DNA of 64,000 nt, from positions 15,753 through 79,752 of the forward strand of contig CAVAGO010000001.1 of NCBI GenBank assembly GCA_963588075.1. The letters run 5' to 3'. This document shows, piece by piece, positions 2,097 to 34,920 of this stretch. Below the pieces are notes generated by a model that saw only the letters and a list, made by a program, of their open reading frames with translations, was not told the origin of the DNA and ran no database searches. Every line of letters starts with the position of its first letter. Positions within the stretch are counted from its first letter, which is position 1. The position numbers and the translations under genes are program-made. Origin of the DNA: a bacterium (GTDB taxonomy: Bacteria; Bacillota_I; Bacilli_A; RF39; UBA660).

Positions 2097-2099
2097 GGT

Positions 2100-2140
2100 G
2101 AAGCCTAGTACATAAGATATTGTGCTAGGCTTTTCTGTTT
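2100..2140 (+). terminator. rho-independent terminator
   Basis: gaagcctagtac / gtgctaggcttt stem (one G:U pair), 10-nt loop, then ttttctgtttt. It lies immediately after the stop at 2094-2096. Confidence 0.7.
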
Positions 2141-2160
2141 TACATTGATGTAAAATTGTA

Positions 2161-2283
2161 TATGACACGCTCGTAGACATGATTCTTTTTGCCTGTATTC
2201 AATTTTATATATCAGAATGATTAATCTATCACGATAAGATTTGCGTGTCATAATGAGCCTTAAAATGCGTCATTCTCACTATG
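2161..2283 (+). promoter_or_regulatory. conserved intergenic module, copy A (candidate promoter, operator or leader)
   Basis: Shares ordered blocks with copies B and C: CGTAGAcATGATTCTTTTTGC, TGATTAATCTATCACGATA (19/19 identical to B), GCCTTAAAAT, TTCTCACTAT. A 10-bp inverted repeat tatgacacgc/gcgtgtcata (2161-2170 and 2244-2253) encloses it. Confidence 0.6.
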
Positions 2284-2370
2284 ATATTTAACATTAAATT
2301 CAGCATCATTATTACTAGTAAATTCCTATTATATTTTTATATTTGTCTTGATAAACAAAAACAAATTATT

Positions 2371-3099
2371 ATGAGTATTAATAAAGTTACTATTGTTGGT
2401 ATTAAAGGATTTAAAGGAAGCGGTAAAGATACAGTTGCTTCTATGATTAGTTATATCCTTCATGATGGTATTATGAAAGCTACTTATGATACTTGGCTTC
2501 TTTATCATAAAAATGGGTTTGTTAAAAATGATGAAATAATTATTCATTTTGCTGATAAACTTAAAGATGATATATCTGAATTTTGTGGTATTGACCGTAA
2601 GCTTCTAGATAGACAAGAAATTAAAGAAAATTATTATTATAATTTTAAGACTGGTATTGTTTCTACTAATATTAAAGATATAGACTGTGTTATTAATACT
2701 GTATTAGAATATGATAATTTATCTACACTTCTTCTTTTAAATAATAATGTTTCTATTAAAATTAGAACTCTTCTTCAATATTATGGAACTAATGTTATTA
2801 GAAATCATTTTTGGCATGAAGCTTTTATTCGTTACACTATGAATAAAGCATTTGATATAAAAAACAGTAAAGGACAATGTATTATAGCTGATGCTAGATT
2901 TGATAACGAATGTGAAGCTATTAAGCAATGTGGAGGAATGATAATTAAAATAGATAGAAAATCTAGTAATGATAATCATGACAGTCACGAAAGTGAACAA
3001 ATAACAATTAATGAAGATGATTATGTTATTGATAATACTGGTACTTTTGTCGGTCTTTTCTATAAAGTTCTTAAATTTGTAACTGATTATATGATATGA
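2371..3099 (+). CDS. deoxynucleoside monophosphate (dNMP) kinase-like P-loop protein
   Basis: P-loop GIKGFKGSGKDT, and CIIADARFDNECEAIKQCGGMIIKIDR, which matches the DVRFxNE...GG pattern of phage dNMP kinases as I remember it. The internal ATG at 2371 is preferred over 2281 because the first 30 codons are I/F/L-rich and overlap module A. Confidence 0.65.
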   Translation: MSINKVTIVGIKGFKGSGKDTVASMISYILHDGIMKATYDTWLLYHKNGFVKNDEIIIHFADKLKDDISEFCGIDRKLLDRQEIKENYYYNFKTGIVSTNIKDIDCVINTVLEYDNLSTLLLLNNNVSIKIRTLLQYYGTNVIRNHFWHEAFIRYTMNKAFDIKNSKGQCIIADARFDNECEAIKQCGGMIIKIDRKSSNDNHDSHESEQITINEDDYVIDNTGTFVGLFYKVLKFVTDYMI

Positions 3100-3485
3100 A
3101 ATTACATCCTATTTTTGGTATAAATGCTCTTGCTAGAGTTTGTATATGTTGTGGTAAGATTATAGGTTATACTCCTATTGGAGATAATATTGATGAAGAC
3201 TTTTCTAATAGTAAACAAATTGCTGATGCTACTGTATGTAAAGAATGCATAGATAAATTAGATAATGAAACTTGTTTTGTGGCTTGTGATGTTAATAAAG
3301 AAGGTTATGTAATTTCTACTTATGATACTTTATGGATTAAAAATAATGGTCTTAAAGAGTTTTTTAAAGAACTTGATTTAATACAACCTATTAATATTAT
3401 GCCTAAAGAACATTTCTATACTGTATTTGGTAATGTAATTAAAGATTTTTATAGTAATAAAGAAGATGAAAATAATAGAACCTAA
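3096..3485 (+). CDS. Cys-rich (putative zinc-ribbon) hypothetical protein
   Basis: 129-aa ORF with CICCGK ... CKEC cysteine pairs. The ATGA start/stop overlap with the upstream gene suggests translational coupling. Confidence 0.55.
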   Translation: MKLHPIFGINALARVCICCGKIIGYTPIGDNIDEDFSNSKQIADATVCKECIDKLDNETCFVACDVNKEGYVISTYDTLWIKNNGLKEFFKELDLIQPINIMPKEHFYTVFGNVIKDFYSNKEDENNRT

Positions 3486-4350
3486 AGTTGAACTTTGGCG
3501 TCAAGAAGATGCTAAAGCTCATGTTGCTAGATGTGCTAGAGTTTGTTATGGAAAAGAAACAGGTAATGATGAAGCTACTGTTAAAAGATTAATTAATAGT
3601 AAACATTGGAGTATGTTTCGTCATGAAACTGTATATGCTATGATTCCTATTGAATTATGGTATGGAAATTTTGGAGAAATTCTTAAGGGCTATAAAGCTT
3701 CTCCTTATATTTCATGGGTTACTGTTAGAGATTATATATATGTTTCTACTAATGGTAATTTTATGTTAGATATAGAAAAATATGAACCTGTTTTATATAA
3801 TGAAATTAATAATTATAGAGTTAGTGAAGAAGAATTTAATTCTTGTGAAACTGCTTATAATCTTTTTGCTCGTTGGACATTTTGTGTAGATACTCAAATT
3901 AGTACTTCTCGTGAATTAAATAGAGTTAGTCCTAATAATATTGCTGAAAAATCTACTCGTTATGTTTACGAAGATGGTACTATTTGTAGACCTCATTGGA
4001 TGAGTAATGATATAGCTAATCATTTTAATAATGAACCTATATTTGACGAATGGATTGTTAAAAATGAAGAACATAAAAAAGTTTATTTATATTATAATGC
4101 TTGTGAAAGTAGTTTTAATAAATATCACATTCTTATTGATGAATATAATATGAATCGTCAAGATGCTCGTGGTATTCTTCCTATTGATACTGCTACTCGA
4201 TGTGTTTATACATATTCCACAAAAGAATGGTTTGATATAATTAAGAAACGTGTGTATCATACCACAGGTAAAGCGCATCCTAATGCTACTATTATATGTA
4301 AACTTATAGAACAAGAATTAAATAAACTTGGATATGAAATTAAAATTTAA
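3466..4350 (+). CDS. thyX: flavin-dependent thymidylate synthase (ThyX-like)
   Basis: SRELNRVSPNNIAEKSTRYV resembles the ThyX signature SRQLVRHR..S....SQRYV. QDARGILPIDTATR resembles the downstream AR.vLP motif. A ThyX fits the crAss-like replication module. Confidence 0.65.
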   Translation: MKIIEPKVELWRQEDAKAHVARCARVCYGKETGNDEATVKRLINSKHWSMFRHETVYAMIPIELWYGNFGEILKGYKASPYISWVTVRDYIYVSTNGNFMLDIEKYEPVLYNEINNYRVSEEEFNSCETAYNLFARWTFCVDTQISTSRELNRVSPNNIAEKSTRYVYEDGTICRPHWMSNDIANHFNNEPIFDEWIVKNEEHKKVYLYYNACESSFNKYHILIDEYNMNRQDARGILPIDTATRCVYTYSTKEWFDIIKKRVYHTTGKAHPNATIICKLIEQELNKLGYEIKI

Positions 4351-4981
4351 TTTTAATAAAAGAAATAAATATAAAAATATTTGTTCTATTGAAGGATGTA
4401 ACAATAGTGCTTGTGGTAAATATTGTAATAAACATTATCATCAAATTAAAAGATATGGACATATTAAAACTCGTACACGTTTTGATAAAAATGAAATTAT
4501 TATAAATGATAATGTTGCTAAAATATTATTATATGATAATAATTGTAATGTTATAGATTATACTATTATTGATGCTGAAGATATTAATAAAATTTCCAAA
4601 TATAAAATATCTAAATGTGGAAATTATGCTTATGCTAATATTAATAATAAAAACGTTGCTTTACATAGAATTATAACAAATACTATTAATGAATTAGATA
4701 AAATTCATAATCCTATTGACCATATAAATGGTAATTGTCTTGATAATAGAAAATCTAATCTTAGAATTTGTACTATGTCTGATAATATGTATAATACATA
4801 TAGACAAAGAAATAATTCCACTGGTGTTAGAAAACATATTCAAAAAGGTAAATATATTTCTTATCAAGCGTATATTTCTATTAATAATAAACAAATAAAT
4901 CTTGGTTATTTCGATACTAAAGAAAAAGCTATTATTGCAAGAAAATTTGCAGAAAGAAAATATAATATAAATAGTTTTTAA
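4328..4981 (+). CDS. HNH homing endonuclease with C-terminal AP2 DNA-binding domain
   Basis: HNH core PIDHINGNCLDNRKSNLRICTMSDNMYN, followed by the AP2-like segment GVRKHIQKGKYISYQAYISINNKQINLGYFDTKEKAIIARKFAERKY. The N-terminus is Cys/His-rich (CSIEGCNNSACGKYCNKHYH). Confidence 0.85.
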   Translation: MDMKLKFNFNKRNKYKNICSIEGCNNSACGKYCNKHYHQIKRYGHIKTRTRFDKNEIIINDNVAKILLYDNNCNVIDYTIIDAEDINKISKYKISKCGNYAYANINNKNVALHRIITNTINELDKIHNPIDHINGNCLDNRKSNLRICTMSDNMYNTYRQRNNSTGVRKHIQKGKYISYQAYISINNKQINLGYFDTKEKAIIARKFAERKYNINSF

Positions 4982-5010
4982 TATTAATAATAATCTAATA
5001 GAACTTGGAT

Positions 5011-5286
5011 ATGACTTCAGAGATTGATAAACTTAAACACTTTCATGTTGAAAATTATAGTGGTACTAATTTCACTGATGATTTAAATGATGGTGAAGAA
5101 TTTCTTTATACTACAATTAGAATTAAAGATGACAAAGAAGTAACATTTCTATGTAAATATGTTAAAAATAAACATATTGAAGTTTGTCCTAATTGTATAT
5201 TTAACAACTATCTTTGTTATGGTCTTTTATGTAATATTGTTGTTCTTAAAGTAGTTAAAGATGAAGAACTTAGAAATAATAAATAA
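5011..5286 (+). CDS. hypothetical protein
   Basis: ORF 5005..5286 with its first ATG at 5011. Cys-rich C-terminal half. Confidence 0.45.
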   Translation: MTSEIDKLKHFHVENYSGTNFTDDLNDGEEFLYTTIRIKDDKEVTFLCKYVKNKHIEVCPNCIFNNYLCYGLLCNIVVLKVVKDEELRNNK

Positions 5287-5313
5287 ATTATTAACTATTT
5301 AAATATTAAAGTT

Positions 5314-5565
5314 ATGAGAAGAAGATTTTATGGCTTTAATAACCGTTTTAGAACTACTAAAAATACAGAAGCTGTTGTATTTGAAAATGGTGGATTTGTT
5401 GGTAATCTTGGTTTAAGTAAAAAACTATGGAAAAAGTATATTGAGACTAGTTATAAATATAAAACTAATACTGATAAAATGACTGCTAGTGATTATACTC
5501 ATTTATTTGGTTATTTAAATCCTTATTATCGTTCTGCTTATAATATACCTAAACGTAGAAAATAA
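5314..5565 (+). CDS. hypothetical small basic protein
   Basis: 83-aa ORF whose stop overlaps the next start (TAATG). Confidence 0.45.
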   Translation: MRRRFYGFNNRFRTTKNTEAVVFENGGFVGNLGLSKKLWKKYIETSYKYKTNTDKMTASDYTHLFGYLNPYYRSAYNIPKRRK

Positions 5566-6344
5566 TGGCAAGTATTTATAATATTACTACTGAACTTGAG
5601 GATATATTTCTTGAGTTAGAAGAAAATGGAGGTGAATTAACTCCTGAATTTGAAGAACGCCTTGCTATTACACAAGATAATCTTAAATCTAAACTTGATG
5701 GTTATCGTAAAGCATATACTGTACTTAATCTTGAAGCTGAATCTTGTAAAAAGGAAGAGCAACGATTAGCTGTTCTTCGTAAAACTAAAGAAAACAATGC
5801 TGAAAGACTTAAAAGTGTTATGCTTGATGCTGTTATAACTTATGGAGATTTAGGTAAGTCTGGTAATAAAGTTATTAATTTAGTTGATAGTAAACTATAT
5901 ACTAAGAACAGTAAATGTGTTGAGATTGATGAAAATCTTAATCAAATATTTATTGATTTAGTTCTTGAACATTTACAATCTCTTTGGGATAATGATATGA
6001 TTGATAGTAATTTCTCATTTAGTAGAGATGTTCTTCTTGAACAAATTAATGATAAATTTACTGAAAGATATCCTGAACAATCTGCTAGACTTAGAGAAGA
6101 AACTGGAGGTTATTTTACTCTTGATGATTTAGATTGTATTAAAGTTAAATTTGAAATTGAAAAACCTATTGGTGATTTAGCTAATAAAATTAATTTTGAT
6201 TTACTTAATACTTTCTTTAATCATCAACATGAAATGACTAGAAGCAGCAGTGTTAATAAAACTACTATGAAGAATATTCTTAATGATGGTAGAGATATTA
6301 GTATAGCTAAACTTGTTGAGAATACTAGTCTTATTATTAAATAA
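5565..6344 (+). CDS. hypothetical coiled-coil protein (N-terminus resembles the Siphovirus Gp157 family; tentative)
   Basis: 259-aa ORF. The acidic helical N-terminus MASIYNITTELEDIFLELEENGGELTPEFEERL...EEQRLAVLRK is typical of Gp157-like proteins found in phage recombination and replication modules. Confidence 0.5.
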   Translation: MASIYNITTELEDIFLELEENGGELTPEFEERLAITQDNLKSKLDGYRKAYTVLNLEAESCKKEEQRLAVLRKTKENNAERLKSVMLDAVITYGDLGKSGNKVINLVDSKLYTKNSKCVEIDENLNQIFIDLVLEHLQSLWDNDMIDSNFSFSRDVLLEQINDKFTERYPEQSARLREETGGYFTLDDLDCIKVKFEIEKPIGDLANKINFDLLNTFFNHQHEMTRSSSVNKTTMKNILNDGRDISIAKLVENTSLIIK

Positions 6345-6350
6345 CTTGGT

Positions 6351-6397
6351 TATACTCCCCGTAGAGGACAGAATTAAGTTCATCCTCCACGGGGAGT
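6351..6397. repeat. intergenic hairpin built from one A-type and one G-type GC-motif unit
   Basis: tatACTCCCCGTAGAGGAc-agaattaagttc-aTCCTCCACGGGGAGT gives a 15-bp stem with a single A:C mismatch on + (G:T wobble on -). It starts 7 nt after the stop at 6344 and has no T-run. Confidence 0.9.
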
Positions 6398-6420
6398 CAA
6401 CACTACTAATCTTGCTAATT

Positions 6421-6540
6421 ATGGAACTAGAAGAAAAAGTAAAAGAATTAATAAAATGGTATATGGATACTTATGGTGTTAATAAAGACCAAGCTGTTAG
6501 AGATATTGAAAGTGTTATGTTACGTATAAGTCATAAATAA
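6421..6540 (+). CDS. small hypothetical protein (39 aa)
   Basis: First ATG of ORF 6313..6540 downstream of the hairpin. MELEEKVKELIKWYMDTYGVNKDQAVRDIESVMLRISHK. Confidence 0.3.
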   Translation: MELEEKVKELIKWYMDTYGVNKDQAVRDIESVMLRISHK

Positions 6541-6541
6541 T

Positions 6542-7603
6542 ATGTATAAAGTAAAAGGTAAACCTTGGGCTTATTCTGGTGCTATTGATGTATCAGATTG
6601 TGCTACTGCTAAAGAAGTTATGCTTAAAGCTGGACTTAATTTTAATGTAGCTAAATGTGAACTAGTTGGTAAAATGCCTATTAAACTTACTGGTACAGAT
6701 GAAGAACTTGACAGAATTATTAAAGAACAGAAAAATGGCACTCACGTATTTGGTACTGACATTTATCGTAAGTGTGATAACGCCTTTGCTACCTATCGTA
6801 CTGATTGCAATATTCCTCTAGGAACAGTTAGAAATAAATATACAATTGTTCAAAACAATGAAGCTTTTAATTTCTTTGATGATGCAATTGGTAAAAATTC
6901 TGCTATTTGGCAAACTGCTGGTTTTTGGGGTAATGGAGAAAGAATATTTGTAAGTGCTAAACTTCCTAATAATATTCTTGTTAAAGGTGACCCTGTTGAA
7001 AATTATCTAGTATTTACTAATACTCATGATGGTAGTGGTGGAGTTAAGATTTTATTTACTCCTATTAGAGTTATTTGTCAAAATACTCTTAACGCTGCTA
7101 TTCATTCTAGTAGTAATTATGTTAGTTTTAGACATACATCTAGTGTTCATAACAAAATTAGTATTGCACAAGAAATATTAGGTATTAGTAAAATTAAATC
7201 TGAAGAATTTGGTCAATATTGTAATTTACTTGCTAATATTAAAGTTACTGATGAAGATGTAATTCAATTTATTGGAGAAAATCTTTTTACTAGTGATGAA
7301 ATTCAACGTCTAAAAGATACAGGACATACTATTAAAGATATTGCTTATCGTAGTGGTTTAGCTTTAACTGATAGTAAAATAAGTAGTAGAAAAATGAATG
7401 TTATTTCTGATACTTATAATTATTATTTTGATGGTCCAGGTCAAAGAGATATTCTTGGTACAGCTTGGGGTGCAGTTAATGCTATTAGTGGATATTATTC
7501 TAATATAGATAATATTGAAGGTACTAAGCGATTTGATAGTATTTGTTATGGTGATAAATCAAGAAAAATAGAAAATGCTTTTGCACTTGCAGAAGCTCTT
7601 TAA
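6542..7603 (+). CDS. DUF932-family (phage/plasmid-like) protein
   Basis: 353-aa ORF. VKILFTPIRVICQNTLNAA matches the characteristic RVVCxNTL core of DUF932 proteins as I remember it. Confidence 0.6.
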   Translation: MYKVKGKPWAYSGAIDVSDCATAKEVMLKAGLNFNVAKCELVGKMPIKLTGTDEELDRIIKEQKNGTHVFGTDIYRKCDNAFATYRTDCNIPLGTVRNKYTIVQNNEAFNFFDDAIGKNSAIWQTAGFWGNGERIFVSAKLPNNILVKGDPVENYLVFTNTHDGSGGVKILFTPIRVICQNTLNAAIHSSSNYVSFRHTSSVHNKISIAQEILGISKIKSEEFGQYCNLLANIKVTDEDVIQFIGENLFTSDEIQRLKDTGHTIKDIAYRSGLALTDSKISSRKMNVISDTYNYYFDGPGQRDILGTAWGAVNAISGYYSNIDNIEGTKRFDSICYGDKSRKIENAFALAEAL

Positions 7604-7622
7604 TTTAATAATTTAATTATAT

Positions 7623-8291
7623 ATGGAAGTAAAAGTATTTAAACTAAAAGAGATTAAACTTATTAGTGGAGATGTTGTAGATGTAGAACAGTATTGTAAT
7701 GTTCAACCTATTCTACCTGCTTATGGTAAAGAAGGTGATGCTTGTATGGATGTTTATCCTATTCTTTGTGAATATGATGTAGATAAAGATAGATTTATTT
7801 ATCATACAGGTTTAGCATTTAATATTGGAGATGATGCTAATGGTGAACCTAATGAAATGTCTTTGCGTCCTAGAAGTAATCTTACTAAATCTGACTTTTA
7901 TATGCCTAATGCTCCTGGTACTCTTGATTGGGGTTATCGTGGAGAACTTCTTATTATTTTTAAGAATCGTACTTCTAGGGATTTAGTTCATGCTGTATCT
8001 ACTCTTGTTGAAGTAGTTGATAAACTTAGAGAACATATGCATTTACCTGATAGTATGGTTGGCAATTCTAGACTTAAACTTAATAATGTTAGAACTACAA
8101 TGACTAACATACTTGCTAAAGTTTCTACTCCACCATATAATTGTGATGGTAAAGATAGATGTTGTCAATTAATTATTAATAGTGCTGAAAGAATTAGTTG
8201 GAAAGAAGTTGAATCTATTGAAGAATTAGGAGAAAGTGAACGTGGAAACAAAGGATTTGGAGAAGGAACAGGAGGAGCAGCTAAAGCTTAA
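7623..8291 (+). CDS. dut: dUTP diphosphatase (dUTPase) with internal insertion
   Basis: Motif I GDACMDVY, motif II RPRSNL, motif III LDWGYRGELLIIF, motif V ERGNKGFGEGTG. Confidence 0.8.
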   Translation: MEVKVFKLKEIKLISGDVVDVEQYCNVQPILPAYGKEGDACMDVYPILCEYDVDKDRFIYHTGLAFNIGDDANGEPNEMSLRPRSNLTKSDFYMPNAPGTLDWGYRGELLIIFKNRTSRDLVHAVSTLVEVVDKLREHMHLPDSMVGNSRLKLNNVRTTMTNILAKVSTPPYNCDGKDRCCQLIINSAERISWKEVESIEELGESERGNKGFGEGTGGAAKA

Positions 8292-8499
8292 AGTTGGTGC
8301 TCGTTATATTCATAATAAAACATCTAATGAATATATAATTATTAGTATTACTAAAATGAAACATCCAGATACAGGTGAATGGATTCCTGCTGTTATTTAT
8401 AAAGTTAATGGACTTGAACCTTTATGGTGTAGAAGTGTTGAAAGTTTTAAAAGTCAGTTTAGTGATGCTAAAGTTGAAGGTAATGAAGTTTATCTATGA
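8236..8499 (+). CDS. DUF1653-like small protein
   Basis: KVGARYIHNKTSNEYIII...HPDTGEWIPAVIYK...LWCRSVESF follows the DUF1653 pattern (YrH.kg..Y...E....VvY..lw.Rp...F). The start is uncertain because the ORF overlaps the dUTPase 3' end by 56 nt. Confidence 0.45.
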   Translation: MNVETKDLEKEQEEQLKLKVGARYIHNKTSNEYIIISITKMKHPDTGEWIPAVIYKVNGLEPLWCRSVESFKSQFSDAKVEGNEVYL

Positions 8500-8765
8500 A
8501 AAAGTTAATCTTGTTTTATTTACCTGATTGTAATGTTAGTAAACTTTTTGAAGAAAGGCTTCATAAAGCTCTTGCTCTATCTGAGTTTGCCGGTAGGTTT
8601 AATCTTATTAGGTATAATCTATATACTGATACTGGTAGACAAGAAGCGCGTAGTGCTGGTATTGGTGATGCTCCTACTGCTTATTGTAATGGTGATATTC
8701 TACGTGGTGTGCAAAGCGATTACACTATTAGGAAATATCTTCGCAAGCTGTTAGGACAGTCATAG
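8496..8765 (+). CDS. thioredoxin/glutaredoxin-fold protein (no CxxC)
   Basis: 89-aa ORF. KLILFYLPDCNVSK ... GDAPTAYCNGDILRG has a beta-alpha-beta plus cis-Pro-like layout. ATGA overlap with the upstream gene. Confidence 0.45.
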   Translation: MKKLILFYLPDCNVSKLFEERLHKALALSEFAGRFNLIRYNLYTDTGRQEARSAGIGDAPTAYCNGDILRGVQSDYTIRKYLRKLLGQS

Positions 8766-8894
8766 ATATGATTCTTTTGCCCTACATTGAATTTTAATTA
8801 TCATTGTGATTAATCTATCACGATATGAATATCATTCAATGTAGGGCTTTAAAATAGCTAATTTTATAAATTCTCATTATATTATACGAATACT
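8761..8894 (+). promoter_or_regulatory. conserved intergenic module, copy B
   Basis: GTCATAGAtATGATTCTTTTGC, 11-bp inverted repeat cctacattgaa/ttcaatgtagg (8781-8791 and 8836-8846), TGATTAATCTATCACGATA, GCTTTAAAAT, TTCTCATTATATTATA, then the ATG at 8895. Confidence 0.65.
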
Positions 8895-9488
8895 ATGGTT
8901 AAAATTGAATTTTATTATAAAAGTGCTGATAAAGATAAAACAGAAGCTATGCGAGAAGCTATTGATATAGCTTTATTTGGTACTAATGTTCAATGTAATT
9001 TTAAGAATCTTCCTGACCATCTTATTCTTGAAGATATGATACTTGAAAAGGCTGTTGCTGGTAAGAATATTACTGAATATCCTACTTGTATTATATATCG
9101 AGATGATACAGAATATAAACGATATAGTAATTCTGTTACTTGGGAAGAACTTCGTAATGATATTAATTATCTTACTGGAGATGAACCTACAAGACAAACA
9201 AATAATATATTTATTGAAGCATTTATTGATGAACATGATTGTATAACTCGTGCTAAATGTGCTGATGCTATTGCTTGGATGTGGAAATATCAAAATACTA
9301 AAGTAGAATATATTCAAACTAATGTTGATAATCCGAATAAGTTTGCTGTTGTAATTAAAGATAGTTGGAGAACTTATGCTACTTATGTGTATTCTGATAG
9401 TCTTACTACTGAAATGATTAAGAATACTCTTCTTAGAGTTCCTAATACTATTAAAGAAGCTGTTAAAAATAATGCTATTGTGTTATGA
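8895..9488 (+). CDS. hypothetical protein, probable duplicated thioredoxin-like fold
   Basis: 197-aa ORF. TEYPTCIIYRDD parallels KKFPTTIIYKET of the next gene. Confidence 0.55.
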   Translation: MVKIEFYYKSADKDKTEAMREAIDIALFGTNVQCNFKNLPDHLILEDMILEKAVAGKNITEYPTCIIYRDDTEYKRYSNSVTWEELRNDINYLTGDEPTRQTNNIFIEAFIDEHDCITRAKCADAIAWMWKYQNTKVEYIQTNVDNPNKFAVVIKDSWRTYATYVYSDSLTTEMIKNTLLRVPNTIKEAVKNNAIVL

Positions 9489-9754
9489 TACGTATTGATT
9501 GTTTTGTTAAAAGTGAATGTGATGCTTGTAAAATTGCAGTTAAAAGTATAACTAATGCTGTTAATGAAGCCAGTTGTGATATTACTTTAAATATTAGAAA
9601 AATAAGTGAAGTTGCTACTAGTATTAAAAAGTTTCCTACTACTATTATATATAAAGAAACTTTATCGCATGAACTTAAAGAACTAGCTAGATTGGAAGGT
9701 AGTTTTCCTAGTGAATATATTGAAGATATTATTGATAAACTTGAAAAAGAATAA
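9485..9754 (+). CDS. thioredoxin/glutaredoxin-like protein with CxxC
   Basis: 89-aa ORF with SECDACK (CxxC) near the N-terminus and a FPTTIIY cis-Pro motif. ATGA overlap with the upstream gene. Confidence 0.55.
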   Translation: MIRIDCFVKSECDACKIAVKSITNAVNEASCDITLNIRKISEVATSIKKFPTTIIYKETLSHELKELARLEGSFPSEYIEDIIDKLEKE

Positions 9755-9757
9755 ACT

Positions 9758-9907
9758 ATGACAGTTAAAGAACTTATAGAAATACTTAAGACTTGTGATG
9801 AAAAGTCTGAAGTAAAAGTTGAACATTGGAATAGTACAGTATCTTCTATTGAAGAAGTTATTGATTATAGTAAAGAACTTAGTGAAGTTATTATAACTAT
9901 TGAATAG
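9758..9907 (+). CDS. small hypothetical protein (49 aa)
   Basis: The ATG lies 4 nt after the previous stop. MTVKELIEILKTCDEKSEVKVEHWNSTVSSIEEVIDYSKELSEVIITIE. Not in the supplied ORF track because it is under 60 aa. Followed by the hairpin terminator at 9943. Confidence 0.3.
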   Translation: MTVKELIEILKTCDEKSEVKVEHWNSTVSSIEEVIDYSKELSEVIITIE

Positions 9908-9942
9908 TTAATACTGATGCTAATGGTTTATATGTTATATGT

Positions 9943-9975
9943 AAAGCTGGCTCTAATAGAGCTGGCTTTATTAAA
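9943..9975 (+). terminator. hairpin terminator candidate
   Basis: aaagctggctct-aat-agagctggcttt gives a 12-bp stem with two central G:U pairs, followed by the T-rich attaaattt. Confidence 0.45.
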
Positions 9976-9990
9976 TTTAATGATTAGCTT

Positions 9991-10161
9991 GGAACCGCTA
10001 CGAGTGCTACGCACTCTTCGCTATACTCCCCGTAGAGGATGGAATGGTAGTTGCGCTAGTAATATTAGTATAGTTATTAATGATAATGATTATATTGATT
10101 GAATGAATACTAGTCTATTCCATCCTCCACGGGGAGTTGAGCGTAGCGAAGCGGAGCGTTC
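9991..10161. mobile_element. 171-bp element with ~45-55 nt imperfect terminal inverted repeats built on long-form GC-motif units (MITE-like or structured RNA locus)
   Basis: Left arm ggaaccgctacgagtgctacgcactcttcgcTATACTCCCCGTAGAGGATGGAAT (9991-10045). Right arm ATTCCATCCTCCACGGGGAGTtgagcgtagcgaagcggagcgttc (10117-10161). A 71-nt AT-rich spacer separates them. The inner 21 nt pair with one mismatch. The arms carry CGCTN/AGCGN pentamer tracts. Confidence 0.6.
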
Positions 10162-10197
10162 TACTAATCCTTAAACTTATAGTCGTTGGCATGACTG

Positions 10198-10241
10198 AAA
10201 CCTCGGTAGATAAGCTAGTCTTACTACTGAGGTTTATTTTT
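10198..10241 (+). terminator. rho-independent terminator
   Basis: aaacctcggtag / ctactgaggttt 12-bp stem (one G:U pair), 14-nt loop, followed by atttttat. Confidence 0.7.
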
Positions 10242-10273
10242 ATCTTATTGTTAAACTTAAATATATTATAATT

Positions 10274-10456
10274 ATGGTTGCATTTATTGTTCTTCTTGGA
10301 ATTATATTTGGTGGTGTTAAACTATTAGCTGTTGCTAATAATATTAGTGATAGTGAAGCTATGGATAAGTATAGTGGAAAATTATTTGTTGTTGGTATTA
10401 TAGTTTTTGTTATTCTTATGTGTGTTATTGGTAATAATGATGATGGTTTTAATTAA
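10274..10456 (+). CDS. small membrane protein (two predicted TM helices)
   Basis: 60-aa ORF. MVAFIVLLGIIFGGVKLLAV ... LFVVGIIVFVILMCVIG. Confidence 0.4.
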   Translation: MVAFIVLLGIIFGGVKLLAVANNISDSEAMDKYSGKLFVVGIIVFVILMCVIGNNDDGFN

Positions 10457-10465
10457 GATAATATT

Positions 10466-11005
10466 ATGGAATTTAATACTAAACTTAGTAAACTTATAGC
10501 TCGTAGAAAAGTTATAGAAACTAGAAAAAGACTTAATAAAATTGTTCAATCTCCTTTTGAAATAAATAATACTTTAAAAACTGTTTATCAAAATAATGTT
10601 GTAGATAATAATAAAAAATATATTATTACTAGACAAGATTATTGTAGAAATTTTGTTACTATTAATATTGATTTTATTAGTAATATGAAATATTTTGATA
10701 AAGGTGCTAATACTATATTTATACATATATGTAAAAATATAGATTTTAATTCTAATGTAATTAAATTTACCGAAAAAGATATTATTGATGAATATAGTAT
10801 TAGTGTAGAAACTTTTTATAACGGTCTTAATATATTATATAATTTTGATGTTATTAAAGCTACTACTCGTAAATCTGTTTACATAATTAATCATAATATT
10901 ATTTTTAAAGGTAGCATTGGAGATTTTATTAAAGAATATAATAAATATTATGAAAATGTTGATGTTATTATTAATGATAAAGGTAAAGTTATATTAAATA
11001 TATAA
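10466..11005 (+). CDS. RepL-like / winged-helix DNA-binding protein (tentative)
   Basis: 179-aa ORF. ...ANTIFIHICKNIDFNSNVIKFTEKDIIDEYSISVETFYNGLNILYNFDVIKAT...VYIINHNIIFKG resembles the wHTH core and the y.iNP.i.fKG tail of RepL plasmid replication proteins reported in crAssphage (from memory). Confidence 0.4.
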   Translation: MEFNTKLSKLIARRKVIETRKRLNKIVQSPFEINNTLKTVYQNNVVDNNKKYIITRQDYCRNFVTINIDFISNMKYFDKGANTIFIHICKNIDFNSNVIKFTEKDIIDEYSISVETFYNGLNILYNFDVIKATTRKSVYIINHNIIFKGSIGDFIKEYNKYYENVDVIINDKGKVILNI

Positions 11006-11013
11006 TTATAAAT

Positions 11014-11355
11014 ATGGTTAGTTTTAAATCTTATAATATCAATAAGTATAGAAATAAACTTATTGATAAACAAAGAAATAGAAAATATATTAATGTATAT
11101 CTTGATTCTTTAAGAGAATTTTATAATCTTACTAATAATGAAAAGAATGTTTTACTTTATATTAATAGTATATATGATAAAACTGAAACTTACTTTGTTA
11201 TTAATACTATATTTTATAATGATTGTGAAGATAAAACTAAAGTTCCAATATCTTCTATAAAATCTGTTTTATATAGTCTTAAAAAGAAAGGATTTATTAG
11301 TAATTATAAAGATAAACATAATAATATTATTAAAGGTTGTTATGTTATTAAATAA
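11014..11355 (+). CDS. small winged-helix-like protein (tentative paralog of the preceding gene)
   Basis: 113-aa ORF. LTNNEKNVLLYI ... ISSIKSVLYSLKKKGFISN. Confidence 0.4.
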   Translation: MVSFKSYNINKYRNKLIDKQRNRKYINVYLDSLREFYNLTNNEKNVLLYINSIYDKTETYFVINTIFYNDCEDKTKVPISSIKSVLYSLKKKGFISNYKDKHNNIIKGCYVIK

Positions 11356-11358
11356 AAT

Positions 11359-11403
11359 AGGGCTTGTCTAGGTAGTGATACCATAGGCAAGCCCTTATTT
11401 TTT
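11359..11403. terminator. bidirectional rho-independent terminator at the convergence of the + and - gene blocks
   Basis: agggcttgtctagg / cataggcaagccct stem, flanked by aaataaaat upstream and tatttttt downstream. It sits between the stop at 11355 (+) and the stop at 11422 (-). Confidence 0.8.
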
Positions 11404-11421
11404 ACTAGGTTCAAGTCCAGC

Positions 11422-23634: not shown

Positions 23635-23670
23635 AAGTTTATATTTAAGTTTAAATTCATTAATAGTAAT

Positions 23671-23719
23671 ACCTCTATGACTAATGTAAAGTAAAATTTA
23701 ATTACATCGTCATAGAGGT
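23671..23719. other. 11-bp perfect inverted repeat (hairpin) between the two giant genes
   Basis: acctctatgac (23671-23681) and gtcatagaggt (23709-23719) with a 27-nt AT loop that has its own atgtaa/ttacat pairing. A T-rich run follows on the + strand only. Confidence 0.7.
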
Positions 23720-23764
23720 GGTTTTCTTTCGTTCTAAGCGACTTTTGTCTTCGCTCGATTAATT

Positions 23765-26700
23765 CTACATACAGCTAAAACTGATACGTCCTGTGTCAAG
23801 CAAAGTGGCAAATTCGGGCTGTTGTGCTATTGGCAAACGGCTAGTCAATTCAGCCATATTCACCACTATATCATCATCAACACTACTAAACATATCAAGT
23901 CCATCATTAAGATTATCATTATTATAATTATAATCTTGACTATTATCTTCATTAGGATTTTCAGTTTGTTCTGTACTAACAGTTTCTTCTTCAAATTGAA
24001 AAGTTTCTTGAATAGCTTCTTGATTACTTTCTTTAGGCATTTTTTTAATAGCTTTATAAGCATCTCTAGCAGCAGCTAATAAACTATCTTCATTAATCTT
24101 AATACCTAACATATCAGCAATAACTTCAAGAAGTTTACTAAATAAAGTCTTACGTTTATTAACTTTTCTATTATCATATTTAATTTCATTAAGTGCAGTC
24201 ATAAGAGCATTACTAGTAATACTTTCAACTAGAAATTCTTCAAGAGCTTCACTTGTATTAAAGTTCTCAAATAGATAAGGTTTAAGTCTTTCTTTAGTAG
24301 CATCATCTTGAGTATCAAGCCAAGCTTTAAATTTATCATATATAGGTTTAACTAAAGCAAGAGCTTGTTCAGTATTATATTTAGTATAAAGTTGTCTATG
24401 TAAACTTTCATGAAGTATAATATTAACAACTCGATAAACTCTTTGATCAGCAATAGCAGAACGATTAAGCTCAATAGTATCTGTATCACGATGATAAACA
24501 GCATTAACTTGATTACCATTATTATCAGTAATACTATTTACAACTTGAATATTTTTAGGTAAAATATCAATCTTTTGAAGAGAATCAATATAATCAAGAG
24601 CAGTTTGATCATTAGCAAAATACTTTTTAAGTCCACGAGTTAAATTCTTAGCAGTTATAGCAGATTCAAAAGAATTAAAATTAATAGCATTAAGAGTATC
24701 ATCTAACATGAACTCTGATAGCTGTTCAGGTATTGCTCCATCCTCCACGGGGGGTCTACCCTCAAGTTCATAAGTAATATCGAGTTTAGAATGAATATCT
24801 ATTTGCCAATTACCAGCAGTTTCATTAGTATTAGTATTAGCTAATTTAGTTCGAACTAAACCATTACTAATAATAAAATCTTGATAACTATTATAACTAT
24901 AAGTTTTACCATCAATATTTATAATAGTTTTACCATTTTCACGATAAATATATTTATTAGTTTTATCATTAGTTTTTGTACTATCATTAATAAAATCTTT
25001 ACTAATAGCAAATTGAGCATAGTTAAACATTTCATCAATAACAGGACGAAGAGCATTATCTAATTCGTCAATAGTATTAGCATTAATGCCATAACTTTTA
25101 CCTATTTTAAAAGCACTATTAACAACATAAGGAGAATTAATAATAATATTACGTTTATAATTACCAGCATCAGAATTAATAGTAAAAGCATAATCTTTAC
25201 CATTAAAATGTGCACCTTTAACATAAAAGCCTATATTAGTAGGATTAATACTAATTTGAAGTCCAGTATTTCTATCTCCGTTAATAAGTTTATTATTTCC
25301 AAATATATCTCCAAGACTTTGTTTAAGTTCACCAAAACTTATTTTACCACTAATATAATCTTTACAAAGATTATTAACTTCATTCTTAATAGAATTAATA
25401 ATACGTCGAGCATCACCTTTAAGTAGATTACTATTTAATGGAACTTGTTTACAAAAAGCATATAGAGAAGTACCATCACTACTTGGAATACTAATAACAG
25501 GCATACCATTAGTAGTAAGATTTTCAATAATAGTAGGTTTACTTTCTCCATTAAGATATAATTGACCTTGTACAACTACACCAAGTTTATTAATATCTTC
25601 GTTATAATTAACTACTGTTTCTTGTACATCATTCCATTCACCATTAGTATCATCAATAGTATTAAGAACTCCATATTTAACGTTAACAGCTTTAACTTTA
25701 CCTTTAAAATCACCTTTAACTATTGTAATAGCTTGATCATAACTATTAAGAAGATTATTAAACCAACGATTAATACTAGCTTCATGACTATTTTCATAAG
25801 GTTGATTAAATATATATTTAGTAAGATTAACAAGATGTCCAGCTAAATCAAAACTTGCAACAGGAGTAGTAAAATCTCTAACTATATCAGGATATTTAGT
25901 TTCAAATTCTTTAAATAGATTAACAAGTTCTTCTTGTGTAACTTCTTCTTTAACAGCAAGTTCATATAAATGACCAATAAATTCTTCGTCAAATCTATCG
26001 CCATCAAGAATACTAATTAAAGCATCTTTAAGCGGAGAAACAACTTGACCATTTTCAGCATGAATATTATATTTCCAACCTTGATTAATCATATCATAGT
26101 TACCAAACTTATCAATATTTGGAACTCCTATATAACCAATAATTGTATCATTAGCAAATATATCAATACGTTTAAGTTTAACATTATATATAGCTTCTAA
26201 ATAATCACCTTGTTTAATACTAGTAAATGCTTTAACATTTTCATTCTCTACTATATACTTAAGATTAACATTATTAGTATGTTCAACTTGAAGTCTTTCA
26301 AGACGTTCTTTAGCAATACCATCAACATATTGAACAAATTGTCTAGCATTAAGTTTTTTAATAGTTGATTCGTCAGTAGCACGATATTTACCTTGATTAT
26401 TAGTGCTGGCGTAAAGATAGTTTTTTATTTGATTAAACAAGTAATTTTTAATAATTTTATTACCTGTAATACTATCTATATATTCAACTAATTGACCAAT
26501 ACTAAGATATACTTTACCATTAACAATTTTACCTCTAGTATTACCTTCACTATCAACACTATTAGCAAAATCATTCATAACAGCTTCTATATTACGTTCA
26601 TTACCTGTAACAGTAGCATAAGTAGCATTAAGTAATAAACGTCTAGTACTATCATCTTGAACAGAACTATATAAACTACCACCTGTAAGACCATCAATAA

Positions 26701-29635: not shown

Positions 29636-29636
29636 A

Positions 29637-32210: not shown

Positions 32211-34786
32211 GATTGTTTTCCTCCAAGTTTTCTACGTTTACGAATAATAAATTCATCATAATCAACTCCAGCATCCCGCATAATTCTATCATCTACATTA
32301 GGAGCAGATGCTATCATAGCACCAATAGTATTATTTAAAGCTTTACGATTTTCATATCTACTAATCATATCTTGAATACCAGCATTAATTCCACTAAATA
32401 AATTATTAATATTAGTTACTTTAGCTTCTCTAATACCATTATCAAATGCTGCTTTTCTATCTATATATTGATTGTATTGTTGAGCATTAAATTGACGTAC
32501 ACTCTGTTGATTACGTCTATCTTGATTAATAAGATTAGTTTCGATATTTTCTTTTTCACCATAAAGTTGATTAACAGCTTGACCAGCAGCATTGCGAACT
32601 CTTTGTTTACGAGCTAAACCTACACGACTACTAGCAGTATTAGAGTCAATATCTCGATAAGCTTCAAATTTATCTTCTCTAATTCTATCAAGTTGAGGAT
32701 TAATATTATATTTAGTTTTAAGTTTACTAGCACTAATAAGAGTAGGCTGTCCCGGACCTCTCATTTTATTAATAGCTCTTTTACTAGCAAAATAACTAGC
32801 TAAACTACCAGCTACATTACTACCTAGTCCAATCCAATCAGCAATAGTAAGATTTTTAAATTTACCTTGACCTTTACCATCGGAAGATGTAGTTCCTTTA
32901 GCAGGTGTACTAGTAGAAACAGGTAAAGTAGTTGGAATATTAGCTTCTACTTTAGGTAGATTGCGATTATAAACAGCAATTGGAGGTGTTTTAGTAGGAA
33001 CAGATTGAGTTGATTGACTTGACTTACTTCGTCCTCCACGGGGGGTCTTCCCACTAGATTTAGTTTTAGATAAACTTGGAATATTAGTATTATTTGTACC
33101 AATACCTCTATTATTTCCATGACTCCAACCGGCTCTAACTAAACCACTAGTAATTCCAGCACCATCTTCAAATAAAGGAAGTCTACGTTCTGCATAATAT
33201 TGAGGACGACGATTACCATTATCAATATTAGATTTATTAGTATTAGTATTTACATTATTATTTGTAATACTATTTTTAGACCATCTTCCATTTCTAAAAG
33301 TATAATCACTACCAACAATAGTTTCTCCTCTAGCAGATTTATTAATAGGATAAGCAGAAGTTCTATTAATAGTTCTATTAGTTATAGGAACATAAGCTCC
33401 AATTTTTTCATCATATTCCCAAGTTCTTCCATGGCGATTAATACGTTTTCCGCCAACAGCAAATTTATCGCGTAGACCCCCCGTAGAGGATGAAGAATGA
33501 ATTAATCCATTCTTAACATTACCATTAATACTAATAACTAATCCAGTATTACCTTTTTTTCTAAGTTCTGGATATTTATTATAAACTTTAGCTTTAACAT
33601 CATTTCTACCATGTAATCCAGCTAATCTTAAAGCGTCAACAGCATCAGCTTTAGTAGGAATAGGATAACTTCTATGTCCACCAGCAAAATCTTTTTTAGC
33701 TACACTAGGATAAGGTTTCTTTTTAGAACCATAATCTTTATCTCTACTTAATCCACCCATAGCTTTTTTATTTTTATTTATATTATTTTTATTTATATAA
33801 TCAATAGTTCTAGAAAGATTACTACCATGTTTACCGATAGTTGTTCTATAAACTTCTTTAATACCTTGATTAATCCAAGTATTATCAATTTTATTAGCTA
33901 AATCATAAATCTTTTGTCTACCTAAATTAATAAAATTAGTAGCAGTTCTACCTATTCTAGAAACTTTAGTTAAACCTTTAATAAATTTATAATTTCTATT
34001 ACCAGCTATTGTAGGATAACCACCAATAATTATCGAACCACTTTCAGCGATTTGTCTTTTATATTCATCAGGTGCTTGATAAATTTTGCCACCTTCTTTA
34101 TATTTAGTTCCATCATCATTAATTCTATTTCTATCTTTAAAATCTTCTTGAGCTTTAAATACTTTATTAGGATTAGCTCCACCCATAACTAATTGAGCAG
34201 GACTAGCACCGTTAAGAATAGGTTGTGCAGAATAAACTTTAAGTTCATTTCCATTAGTTTCAACTACTTCACCATCTTCTACTTCAATACCAGTTTTATC
34301 ACTAGGACCAATATCAATACCACCTTGACTATGTTTTCTTCCATTCATATAAAAGAAATTATTACCAAGAGGTTGAGCAATACCACCAGCAACTACATTT
34401 GGTATTTTACCACCAACAGCATATTGTTTTTGAGGAAGATTTTTTCCATTACTTCTAGGAGTTTGAATAATATTAAATGGAAATGTTGGTCCAAGTTCAT
34501 CATCACTAGGAAAAGATTCTTTATTAAAATCTTTAACATAATTAATAAGTCTACCAGCAGTATTATTCATTAATTTTTCTCTATTATCTTTAGATACTAA
34601 ATTGTTTATACCATTATAGAGAAATTCATTACCGAGTCTTATTAAACCAGTAGATTTAGCAACTTTATCATAAGCTCCACCAAGTGGAGGAATACCATTT
34701 TGAATAAATCTTCCATTACTAGTAACATTACCTCTAAACGTACTAGGTAAATTACTTATATGAATAACTTTATCTTTTCTAGGCAT
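32201..34786 (-). CDS. large virion structural/ejection protein, 861 aa, Gly/Asn/Lys-rich (function unknown)
   Basis: Uninterrupted ORF preceded by conserved module copy C. It contains an inverted pair of GC-motif copies. Confidence 0.75.
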   Translation of the reverse strand: MPRKDKVIHISNLPSTFRGNVTSNGRFIQNGIPPLGGAYDKVAKSTGLIRLGNEFLYNGINNLVSKDNREKLMNNTAGRLINYVKDFNKESFPSDDELGPTFPFNIIQTPRSNGKNLPQKQYAVGGKIPNVVAGGIAQPLGNNFFYMNGRKHSQGGIDIGPSDKTGIEVEDGEVVETNGNELKVYSAQPILNGASPAQLVMGGANPNKVFKAQEDFKDRNRINDDGTKYKEGGKIYQAPDEYKRQIAESGSIIIGGYPTIAGNRNYKFIKGLTKVSRIGRTATNFINLGRQKIYDLANKIDNTWINQGIKEVYRTTIGKHGSNLSRTIDYINKNNINKNKKAMGGLSRDKDYGSKKKPYPSVAKKDFAGGHRSYPIPTKADAVDALRLAGLHGRNDVKAKVYNKYPELRKKGNTGLVISINGNVKNGLIHSSSSTGGLRDKFAVGGKRINRHGRTWEYDEKIGAYVPITNRTINRTSAYPINKSARGETIVGSDYTFRNGRWSKNSITNNNVNTNTNKSNIDNGNRRPQYYAERRLPLFEDGAGITSGLVRAGWSHGNNRGIGTNNTNIPSLSKTKSSGKTPRGGRSKSSQSTQSVPTKTPPIAVYNRNLPKVEANIPTTLPVSTSTPAKGTTSSDGKGQGKFKNLTIADWIGLGSNVAGSLASYFASKRAINKMRGPGQPTLISASKLKTKYNINPQLDRIREDKFEAYRDIDSNTASSRVGLARKQRVRNAAGQAVNQLYGEKENIETNLINQDRRNQQSVRQFNAQQYNQYIDRKAAFDNGIREAKVTNINNLFSGINAGIQDMISRYENRKALNNTIGAMIASAPNVDDRIMRDAGVDYDEFIIRKRRKLGGKQSCR
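33030..33051 (-). repeat. GC-motif copy, G-type
   Basis: cgtcctccacggggggtcttcc, read as GKTPRGGRS. Confidence 0.9.
33472..33494 (+). repeat. GC-motif copy, A-type
   Basis: gtagaccccccgtagaggatgaa, read as SSSSTGGLR. Confidence 0.9.
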
Positions 34787-34920
34787 TTTATATAATATAA
34801 TGAGAAATTGTAATTTGATTGATTTTAAGGCTCTCTGCTGAACGATAGCCTATCAGTCGATTAATAGTTCATACCTATATATAATAATTCAACAGAGAGC
34901 AAAAGACTAGCGTCTATGAC
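34787..34920 (-). promoter_or_regulatory. conserved intergenic module, copy C (reverse orientation, matching its - strand genes)
   Basis: The reverse complement reads GTCATAGAcgcTAGTCTTTTGC, a 13-bp inverted repeat gctctctgttgaa/ttcagcagagagc, ATTAATCGA, GCCTTAAAAT, TTCTCATTATATTATAtaaa, then the ATG at 34786. Confidence 0.65.

Follow-up and report, generated by a model that had tools for sequence, protein, structure and literature searches.

A conserved intergenic cassette of crAss-like phages as a candidate phage-specific promoter or operator

What is the function of a block of about 105 bp that recurs between the genes of a crAss-like phage, keeping its sequence boxes and their spacing and changing the sequence of its stem? 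We addressed this question in a stretch of 64,000 nucleotides (hereafter, the window) that covers positions 15753-79752 of the 97,134-bp phage contig C1, binned in a 2.28-Mb assembly of 163 contigs (G000). A megablast search with window positions 8000-10000 matched nine crAssphage records, including Carjivirus communis BK010471, at 91-95% identity, and by these matches the window belongs to a 97-kb relative of Carjivirus communis (p-crAssphage), about 93% identical to it. An earlier reading made from the letters alone (hereafter, the sequence-only reading) had noticed an intergenic module present three times and had left open whether it was a promoter, operator, leader or structured RNA, possibly served by a phage-specific RNA polymerase or regulator. 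Judged by its conservation, the module (hereafter, the cassette) is a real, conserved and functional non-coding element. We propose, giving the proposal about even chances, that it is an autonomous phage-specific promoter or operator with a built-in hairpin, carried by Intestiviridae crAss-like phages and acting at the level of DNA.

We located cassettes with two covariance models. Model R1 uses sequence only and spans 69 positions, from the upstream core to the downstream box, and was built from Carjivirus and more distant copies; model R2 spans 103 positions including a 14-bp stem and was seeded with 18 copies of four genera, copy C being left out. Across the whole 2.28-Mb bin the two models gave five matches, all of them on the phage contig, which speaks for phage specificity. 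R1 E-values against the whole bin were 4e-18 for copy A, 2e-16 for copy B and 4e-3 for copy C, the other significant matches being the two copies on C1 that lie outside the window. With filters off, R2 recovered copy C in the window at E = 2e-10 though it was absent from the seed, and it returned no further window match below E = 0.5 except a reverse-strand echo of B at E = 0.016. The earlier count of three is therefore exact for the window, and the genome total is five, with two copies beyond it. All six blocks that the sequence-only reading had listed were found in the order it gave at all three places, and the 19-mer it reported, TGATTAATCTATCACGATA, is identical in A and B. The downstream genes it had named were also confirmed: dNMP (deoxynucleoside monophosphate) kinase and ThyX for A (by Pfam and PHROGs), the gp38/thioredoxin cluster for B and gp47 for C, where the cassette heads a gene block whose last gene encodes the giant virion RNA polymerase gp44. 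The copies and their parts are as follows.

2172-2274, + strand: copy A, between gp25 and gp26 (dNMP kinase) by the BK010471 annotation; R2 100 bits, E = 5e-21
2172-2178, + strand: CGTAGAC of copy A
2183-2193, + strand: TTCTTTTTGCC of copy A
2218-2236, + strand: core of copy A, TGATTAATCTATCACGATA
2255-2274, + strand: downstream box (box 2) of copy A, GAGCCTTAAAATGCGTCATT
2163-2170 and 2243-2250, + strand: TGACACGC paired with GCGTGTCA, an alternative 8-bp stem of copy A that starts upstream of its first block
8761-8863, + strand: copy B, between gp37 (truncated thioredoxin) and gp38; R2 98.6 bits, E = 1e-20
8761-8767, + strand: CATAGAT of copy B, holding the stop codon TAG (8763-8765) of the gp37 homologue
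8772-8781, + strand: TTCTTTTGCC of copy B
8779-8792, + strand: 5' arm of copy B, GCCCTACATTGAAT
8807-8825, + strand: core of copy B
8834-8847, + strand: 3' arm of copy B, ATTCAATGTAGGGC
8844-8855, + strand: box 2 of copy B, GGGCTTTAAAAT
8871..8897, + strand: leader of copy B, with the block TTCTCATTATATTATA at 8871-8886, running to the ATG at 8895 of the gp38 homologue, with the gp38/thioredoxin cluster downstream
34814-34918, - strand: copy C, a variant, between gp48 and gp47; R2 55.3 bits, E = 2e-10
34918-34912, - strand: CATAGAC of copy C
34909-34907, - strand: stop codon TAG of the open reading frame (ORF) upstream of copy C
34900-34888, - strand: 5' arm of copy C, GCTCTCTGTTGAA
34865-34859, - strand: ATTAATC of copy C, in a shifted core
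34842-34830, - strand: 3' arm of copy C, TTCAGCAGAGAGC
34833-34822, - strand: box 2 of copy C, GAGCCTTAAAAT
34784..34806, - strand: leader of copy C, with the block TTCTCATTATATTATA at 34806-34791 and the ATG at 34786-34784 of the 861-aa gp47 homologue
C1:3370-3472, + strand: copy D, outside the window, between gp09 and gp10
C1:83225-83327, + strand: copy E, outside the window, between the portal gene gp76 and gp75

Anchored on TTAAAAT, 20 independent copies align without gaps over about 105 bp. The cassette opens with CGTAGAY and TTCTTTTGCC, followed by a variable 14-nt arm, the AT-rich stretch TTTTATATATCGAA, the block ATGATTAATCTAT, about 10 variable nt, the second arm and finally box 2. 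Two boxes are invariant: an upstream one, AATGATTAATC(TAT), centred on the palindrome GATTAATC, and box 2, GAGCCTTAAAAT(G/A)CGT(C/T)ATT (also given as GAGCCTTAAAATGCGTCATT), which lies 33 nt past the upstream core and whose conservation extends about 8 nt past TTAAAAT. Of 17 copies, 15 have exactly 33 nt from ATTAATC to TTAAAAT; copy C has 30 nt and one Delmidovirus-type copy has 34 nt. The requirements of a protein-DNA complex would explain such rigidity.

The two arms form a 14-bp inverted repeat of free sequence, symmetric about GATTAATC and enclosing a 42-nt interior. In 13 of the 20 copies at least 9 of the 14 positions pair in a common register (copy C in its own register, shifted by its shorter spacing), and shifted registers otherwise give about 5. 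Among 18 copies of four genera, 67.5% of cells pair in the fixed register compared with 34-42% when the partner column is slid; 10 of the 14 pairs change on both sides, and none of 500 shuffles of this 18-copy alignment reached the observed covariation, which bears out the earlier view that stem sequences vary while pairing is kept. About a third of copies (Carjivirus A and E, Delmidovirus-type I, L226, L213 and the crAss002 copy at 34148) have a weak stem or none, and these keep the boxes and their spacing; in copy A the canonical arms are unpaired (6 of 14) and the 8-bp alternative stem stands in their place. Strong folds (z = -4 to -8) are predicted for B, C and D and for several Delmidovirus-type copies, and the RNA fold of copy B scores z = -5.0 in sense and -4.7 in antisense. 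Folding energy did not differ significantly between sense and antisense strands (Wilcoxon p = 0.71). Well-paired copies have G.U over A.C pairs by 15 to 4 on the sense strand, an excess that is not significant once the skew of G over C is allowed for (binomial, p about 0.07). As a separate observation, from a small sample and with no formal test, the stem is strongest where a copy directly abuts the upstream ORF (B, C, D and the Delmidovirus gp48/gp47 copies) and weakest where there is a separate terminator or no upstream gene (A and E).

Three further candidate features were considered and rejected. A second small hairpin around box 2 (AATGA..TCATT) showed no covariation, with 262 of 500 shuffles as good, and for that reason the idea of a switch between alternative structures was rejected with it. 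An apical mini-hairpin, TGAT..ATCA, is by inspection lost where the core ends differ. A leader peptide was suggested by ATGATTCTTTTGCC.., which opens ORFs of 9-13 codons in A, B and D; its ATG is missing in C and in many strains and relatives.

The cassette extends well beyond this genome. Our first patterns for searching IMG/VR (TCTTTTGC..GCYTTAAAAT and AATGATTAATC..TTAAAA) were too unspecific and gave mostly chance matches, and the exact 17-mer TGATTAATCTATCACGA was used instead. It retrieved orthologues of A, B, D and E from Carjivirus strains, as well as copies in more GC-rich crAss-like contigs that have unrelated flanks and the same gene order; two named Delmidovirus genomes carry versions, a few bases apart, of two cassette types of the latter contigs (H and L213). 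By R1 and R2, C. communis and each of two Delmidovirus species carry five copies, the IMG/VR relatives five to seven, the cultured Rudgehvirus jaberico four significant copies, and crAss002 three plus a weaker fourth, while neither model matched anything in three Steigviridae genomes (crAss001, DAC15 and phi14:2). Taken together, genomes of Crudevirinae (Carjivirus, Delmidovirus, Rudgehvirus) have five to seven copies each. Junctions that are orthologous across genera despite unalignable flanks lie before the dNMP kinase gene, at gp48/gp47, at portal/gp75 and after the zincin gene. The crAss002 variant keeps box 2 and the outer blocks and has GGATGAAC or CCTGAAC in place of TGATTAATC, resembling the odd core of Carjivirus copy C, TATGAAC..ATTAATC. 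A covariance-model search of the genome and its relatives had been proposed as a check on the module, and its outcome, five copies on C1 and blocks conserved in related genomes, supports it.

All copies are intergenic. The variable fraction of copy E is 0.011 compared with 0.024 in its flanks (18 distinct Carjivirus sequences), which ranks it with the best-conserved parts of its spacer, and copy E is not decaying. Among Carjivirus strains A, D and E all vary less than the flanks, which are mostly coding, and B varies to about the same extent; copy C is slightly more variable than its flanks (0.019 versus 0.008), a comparison drawn from only four distinct sequences. In the gp48/gp47 cassettes of Delmidovirus-like strains (L203/L204/L207 versus L209 versus L206/L210) we observed that homology between strains ends about 10 nt past box 2 and that three different sequences or genes follow, one of them a 111-aa membrane-like ORF, which suggests recombination at the 3' edge of this cassette. 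A search of literature text for the core 11-mer GAGCCTTAAAA gave nine matches, all in unrelated papers. No description of the cassette was found in the literature that could be searched, and it appears to be undescribed.

The sequence-only reading had described the module as oriented with the downstream gene. This applies to most copies, 13 of which, in four genomes, point the same way as both neighbours, but it is not general, for about one quarter of copies across genomes oppose the flanking genes. The portal/gp75 copy is sense in Rudgehvirus and crAss002, and Carjivirus (copy E) and the Delmidovirus-like contig G005 carry it inverted; antisense placement at this junction is thus conserved in two genera, and both boxes are preserved in the antisense Delmidovirus-type orthologue of copy E. 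The inverted copy and the canonical gp75 promoter point away from each other, the copy towards the 3' end of the portal gene. Rudgehvirus has one more copy that is antisense to both neighbours. That an antisense minority is conserved argues against an element embedded purely in mRNA.

A weaker antisense candidate lies at the gp45/gp44 junction, where the sequence-only reading had pointed to a hairpin built on GTCATAGAGG. The hairpin is real, and it is not a cassette; what overlaps it is a weak, degenerate antisense match. A clearer antisense copy is seen in crAss002 where the gp45-like gene meets the polymerase gene (L368:11115-11217; E = 5e-5 locally).

23671-23719, - strand: 18-bp hairpin containing GTCATAGAGG (z = -5.4), in the 130-bp gp45/gp44 spacer between a 1956-aa gene and the 4070-aa polymerase gene
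23711-23814, + strand: degenerate antisense cassette-like match overlapping the GTCATAGAGG hairpin; E = 0.003 locally, 0.64 window-wide

We then compared the cassette with the host-type signals of the same genomes. The motif TAnnTTTG is absent from every cassette, in keeping with the earlier statement that the module holds no good match to the Bacteroides promoter apart from one TTTG, and it is absent from the short leaders of B (31 nt), C and D; the leaders of B and C share an identical 16-mer. Canonical TAnnTTTG boxes are found elsewhere on C1, ahead of gp75, gp55, gp56 and one RepL gene, among others, and those below, including the dNMP-kinase box, lie 17-45 nt before their starts. Upstream of gp75, which heads the capsid operon, TA(T/C)(A/T)TTTG stands 25-45 nt before the start in all four lineages. 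From these motifs the phage appears to use ordinary host-type promoters besides the cassette.

2100..2143, + strand: intrinsic-terminator-like hairpin and T-run (stem of 13 pairs, then TCTGTTTTAC) that closes the upstream unit (gp25 homologue) immediately ahead of copy A
2338..2345, + strand: canonical Bacteroidetes -7 box TATATTTG, 63 nt past copy A and 25 nt ahead of the dNMP-kinase ATG at 2371
C1 83104-83111, - strand: canonical -7 box of gp75
C1 60962, - strand: canonical -7 box of gp55
C1 61542, - strand: canonical -7 box of gp56
C1 93921, + strand: canonical -7 box of a RepL gene

The two kinds of signal are arranged in a regular way. All seven sense cassettes that lie at least 75 nt from the start codon, including copy A, are followed by a canonical TAnnTTTG 17-42 nt before the ATG, whereas none of the six that lie 27-48 nt from the start (B, C and D among them) has one. 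This pattern makes the cassette a second, different control point beside ordinary promoters. It also qualifies the earlier claim that each copy starts a gene group, since a host-type -7 box intervenes between cassette and start codon in 7 of the 13 sense copies, including A. As the sequence-only reading had noted, copy A follows a terminator; it is one of several copies, the crAss002 portal/gp75 copy being another, that sit between a canonical terminator and a canonical promoter, so that neither neighbouring transcript is expected to contain such a copy and it must act alone.

The cassette itself resembles neither a terminator nor a sigma-70-type promoter. It lacks the GC-rich, small-loop hairpin and U-tract of an intrinsic terminator, its 3' arm running into GAGCCTTAAAAT, and a terminator scan of 1500-11500 returned only 2100-2133 and 7577-7596, with no cassette among them. 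A scan for sigma-70-type promoters found 85 sites compared with 80 expected from shuffles, with no listed site in A or B; the host consensus differs in any case. Readings of box 2 as sigma-70-like (TTGCGT-14 nt-TAAAAT) or as the box of an extracytoplasmic function (ECF)-like sigma factor (CGTC as -10) were rejected by inspection, the spacing or the partner box being unconserved. We also noted a further short block conserved in Rudgehvirus and Carjivirus, G(A/G)CTTAAAGGT(A/G)AA, between the portal/gp75 cassette and the canonical gp75 promoter (Rudgehvirus OQ198719 4990-5010; C1 83150-83175, - strand).

Asymmetric boxes, rigid spacing, an intergenic site, conservation in either orientation and placement between terminator and promoter together indicate an autonomous, polar element that acts at the DNA level, and a promoter or operator would be the simplest element of this kind. 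In the mechanism that we propose, the palindrome, which would suit a dimeric factor, is recognised by a dimeric phage-encoded factor or by a phage polymerase domain, and RNA synthesis would begin at or just past box 2. The enzyme would be one other than the unmodified host sigma-A holoenzyme, either the virion-delivered two-barrel RNA polymerase or the host polymerase redirected by a phage factor; the conservation of box 2 past TTAAAAT is more like that of a dedicated-polymerase promoter than that of a sigma-type -10 box. Downstream genes would in this way gain a second temporal programme alongside the canonical TAnnTTTG promoters. The inverted repeat might provide insulation from read-through where there is no separate terminator, as in the promoter-early stem-loop (PeSL) cassettes of T4-type phages, or might aid opening of the AT-rich centre, and opposed copies, such as portal/gp75 in Carjivirus and Delmidovirus, would fire antisense RNA into neighbouring late genes. 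Among the options of the sequence-only reading, this one is favoured by a conserved module of non-sigma-A type at orthologous junctions in four genera, with rigid spacing and under purifying selection; structured RNA is the weaker option, its stem not being universal and showing no significant strand bias.

Several observations weigh against a promoter or operator. Neither box resembles a known promoter consensus, and the word promoter draws on position and architecture only. We found in the literature no mapped crAssphage transcript ends, nor a footprint or reporter result for any copy, and in phi14:2, a phage of a different family and the only crAss-like phage so studied, the transcripts of the virion polymerase showed no common upstream motif (bioRxiv 10.1101/2020.03.07.982082). 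The seven sense copies with a canonical host-type promoter for the downstream gene do not need the cassette as their sole promoter. A stem that covaries in a fixed register exceeds the needs of a simple promoter, and the 15 to 4 excess of G.U pairs, with the reservation about its significance given above, hints at folding of the sense strand, as RNA or as single-stranded DNA. Finally, the quarter of copies that oppose genes calls for assumptions about antisense RNA. A bolder version, which we think rather unlikely, would make the cassette the missing promoter of the two-barrel virion RNA polymerase. The arms would then clamp the conserved AT-rich 42-nt centre, GATTAATC included, as an extruded bubble of single-stranded DNA of the kind needed by the injected enzyme, which transcribes denatured DNA in vitro (Fig. 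2c of bioRxiv 10.1101/2020.03.07.982082). Transcription would start at GAGCCTTAAAATGCGTC, and the portal/gp75 and gp45/gp44 antisense copies would be part of the same early programme, either silencing late genes or helping to draw the genome in.

If the covarying hairpin acts instead as structured RNA in polycistronic transcripts, it could present its conserved loop to a nuclease or RNA-binding protein, as a processing site (T7 RNase III-like), a 3'-end stabiliser of the upstream message or a translational operator of the downstream gene. This is unlikely in our view, though several points favour it: the fixed register of the 14-bp stem in four genera, the strong folds of B, C, D and several Delmidovirus-type copies, the leaning of wobble pairs in well-paired copies toward the sense strand, and the block TTCTCATTATATTATA abutting the start codon in B and C. 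In copy B and two copies of the Delmidovirus-like G005, moreover, no terminator separates the cassette from the upstream gene, at or over whose stop codon it begins. But about a third of copies dispense with the stem and keep boxes and spacing, folding energy shows no significant strand difference, the candidate box-2 hairpin does not covary, and conserved copies oppose both of their neighbours, while others follow a canonical terminator and precede a canonical promoter, where neither transcript is expected to include them. Rfam gave no window match at gathering thresholds, and none of the matches in an E-value scan of five cassette-bearing loci overlapped a cassette; no tRNA or tmRNA was found. 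Were the cassette itself the gene of a trans-acting small RNA, about 100 nt long with CGTAGA and box 2 at its two ends, its autonomy, its fixed length, its covarying helix and its ability to lie either way round between genes would be accounted for, and phi14:2 makes abundant intergenic non-coding RNAs. We consider this improbable: no promoter signal is conserved upstream of the cassette, no terminator comes after box 2, a third of copies lack the helix, in B and C the ORF upstream extends into the element, and a shared trans target is unlikely for five to seven paralogues whose stems differ.

The same palindromic centre could also serve DNA outside transcription. On single-stranded or supercoiled DNA the inverted repeat would form a hairpin or cruciform, at which priming or initiation could take place or which could help, like a centromere or otherwise, to maintain a phage-plasmid form. 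Consistent with such a signal are the perfect palindrome and AT-rich middle of the dyad, the small number of copies scattered over each genome, the occurrence of either orientation to genes at some junctions and the frequent placement in likely untranscribed stretches between predicted terminator and predicted promoter, as is the report of C. communis as a phage-plasmid with two RepL genes, its single-stranded DNA-binding protein (SSB) genes being those most often expressed (bioRxiv 10.1101/2024.03.20.585998). However, box 2 is asymmetric and lies on a constant side at a constant distance, polarity follows gene direction in about three quarters of copies, and the element is always just upstream of genes, never within the long ORFs that fill most of the genome. 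From the positions we infer that the orientations fit neither unidirectional nor simple bidirectional replication, and no partition genes are annotated or reported; we hold a DNA signal of this type to be quite unlikely. Least credible, and very improbable, is a mobile element similar to a miniature inverted-repeat transposable element (MITE), or a recombination linker with no regulatory role. The repeated unit of about 105-125 bp with inverted repeats, the strain breakpoint past box 2 in Delmidovirus-like phages with different genes after it and the identical leader 16-mer in B and C would agree with it. The arms, though, differ between copies and hence are not shared terminal repeats, the same junctions are occupied in different genera, no copy exists elsewhere in the bin, copies are under purifying selection within strains, and no flanking direct repeats were seen in the sequences read, in which no formal search for duplications or transposase was made. 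The MITE identity was rejected on the unshared arms, the orthologous positions and the absence of copies off the phage contig.

Comparison with known phage elements places the candidate promoter or operator in context. Phage N4, too, injects its own RNA polymerase, which recognises promoters through a DNA hairpin and specific bases, the hairpins having 5-7-bp stems and 3-nt loops. The cassette differs in geometry, with a 14-bp stem, a 42-nt conserved interior and no stem in a third of copies. The RNase III sites of T7 are repeated intergenic hairpins between co-transcribed genes that act as sense RNA only. They resemble the cassette in being repeated and intergenic, in their length of about 60-100 nt and in a sequence that is partly conserved; they differ from it in that cassette copies may be antisense to both neighbours or stand between terminator and promoter, and in that its two boxes are better conserved than its helix. 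The middle and late promoters of phi14:2 and of beta-crassvirinae genus VI are like the cassette in being a conserved, loosely tripartite motif upstream of replication-side genes and of genes of the virion-polymerase block (Drobysheva et al., bioRxiv 10.1101/2020.03.07.982082). Read directly, the phi14:2 middle promoters upstream of g070, g075, g108 and g110 consist of an A-tract, (C/T)TTG and TAnnTTTG, the canonical sigma-A type, for which we took a spacing of about 17-19 nt from (C/T)TTG to TAnnTTTG. TAnnTTTG is missing from the cassette, phi14:2 gave no match to R1 or R2, and Carjivirus has both kinds of element.

The closest described functional analogue would be the PeSL cassettes of the T4-type phages RB49 and phi1, strong sigma-70 consensus promoters tested with reporters (Arbiol et al. 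2010, PMC2839356). In each, a composite intergenic unit of about 100 bp joins boxes, of putative promoter function in our case, to a stem-loop and is bounded by an upstream stop and a downstream start codon; each recurs in its genome with a different stem from copy to copy, and strain gene content may change at the cassette edge. The analogy is incomplete. The cassette matches no host consensus and has no host sigma-70-type -35 and -10 boxes; PeSL stems are variably placed and act as terminators, whereas the stem of the cassette keeps one register around its palindrome and has no U-tract; and PeSLs are many and mark hyperplastic regions of ORFans, whereas the cassette is present in five to seven copies at conserved core-gene junctions, with strain-specific genes behind it only at the Delmidovirus gp48/gp47 copy.

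A few further observations concern the sample and the rest of the window. The crAssphage contig shares its bin with low-GC (28-31%) bacterial contigs, and base composition is probably the cause of this binning. The 2001-bp query from window positions 8000-10000 spans 2475-2640 bp in most relatives, as two aligned pieces (BK010471 25560-28049 and other crAssphage records), from which it follows that the window is without about 0.5 kb somewhere in the thioredoxin/gp40-gp41 region; just upstream of this region, the BK010471 annotation has an HNH-intron within the dUTPase gene. A big hairpin, a long and perfect-looking palindrome unrelated to the cassette, occupies window positions of about 10000-10140 in the gap before the gene at 10274, and both its strands score against a plant microRNA-precursor model at 31 bits, far below the threshold of 130.

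Very little is known of how crAssphage times its genes, and the metatranscriptome in the preprint on culturing C. communis gives coverage at gene level only (bioRxiv 10.1101/2024.03.20.585998). The cassette offers a precise, conserved, 105-bp candidate control element. Besides the uncultured prototype, two cultured relatives, Rudgehvirus jaberico and crAss002, carry it, which makes its function directly testable at the bench. For annotators it could mark transcription-unit boundaries in Intestiviridae, and those who build reporters or engineer Bacteroides phages could gain a portable part. Should it turn out to be an RNA or a replication signal instead, a major gut virus would still possess a family-wide element that had gone undescribed.

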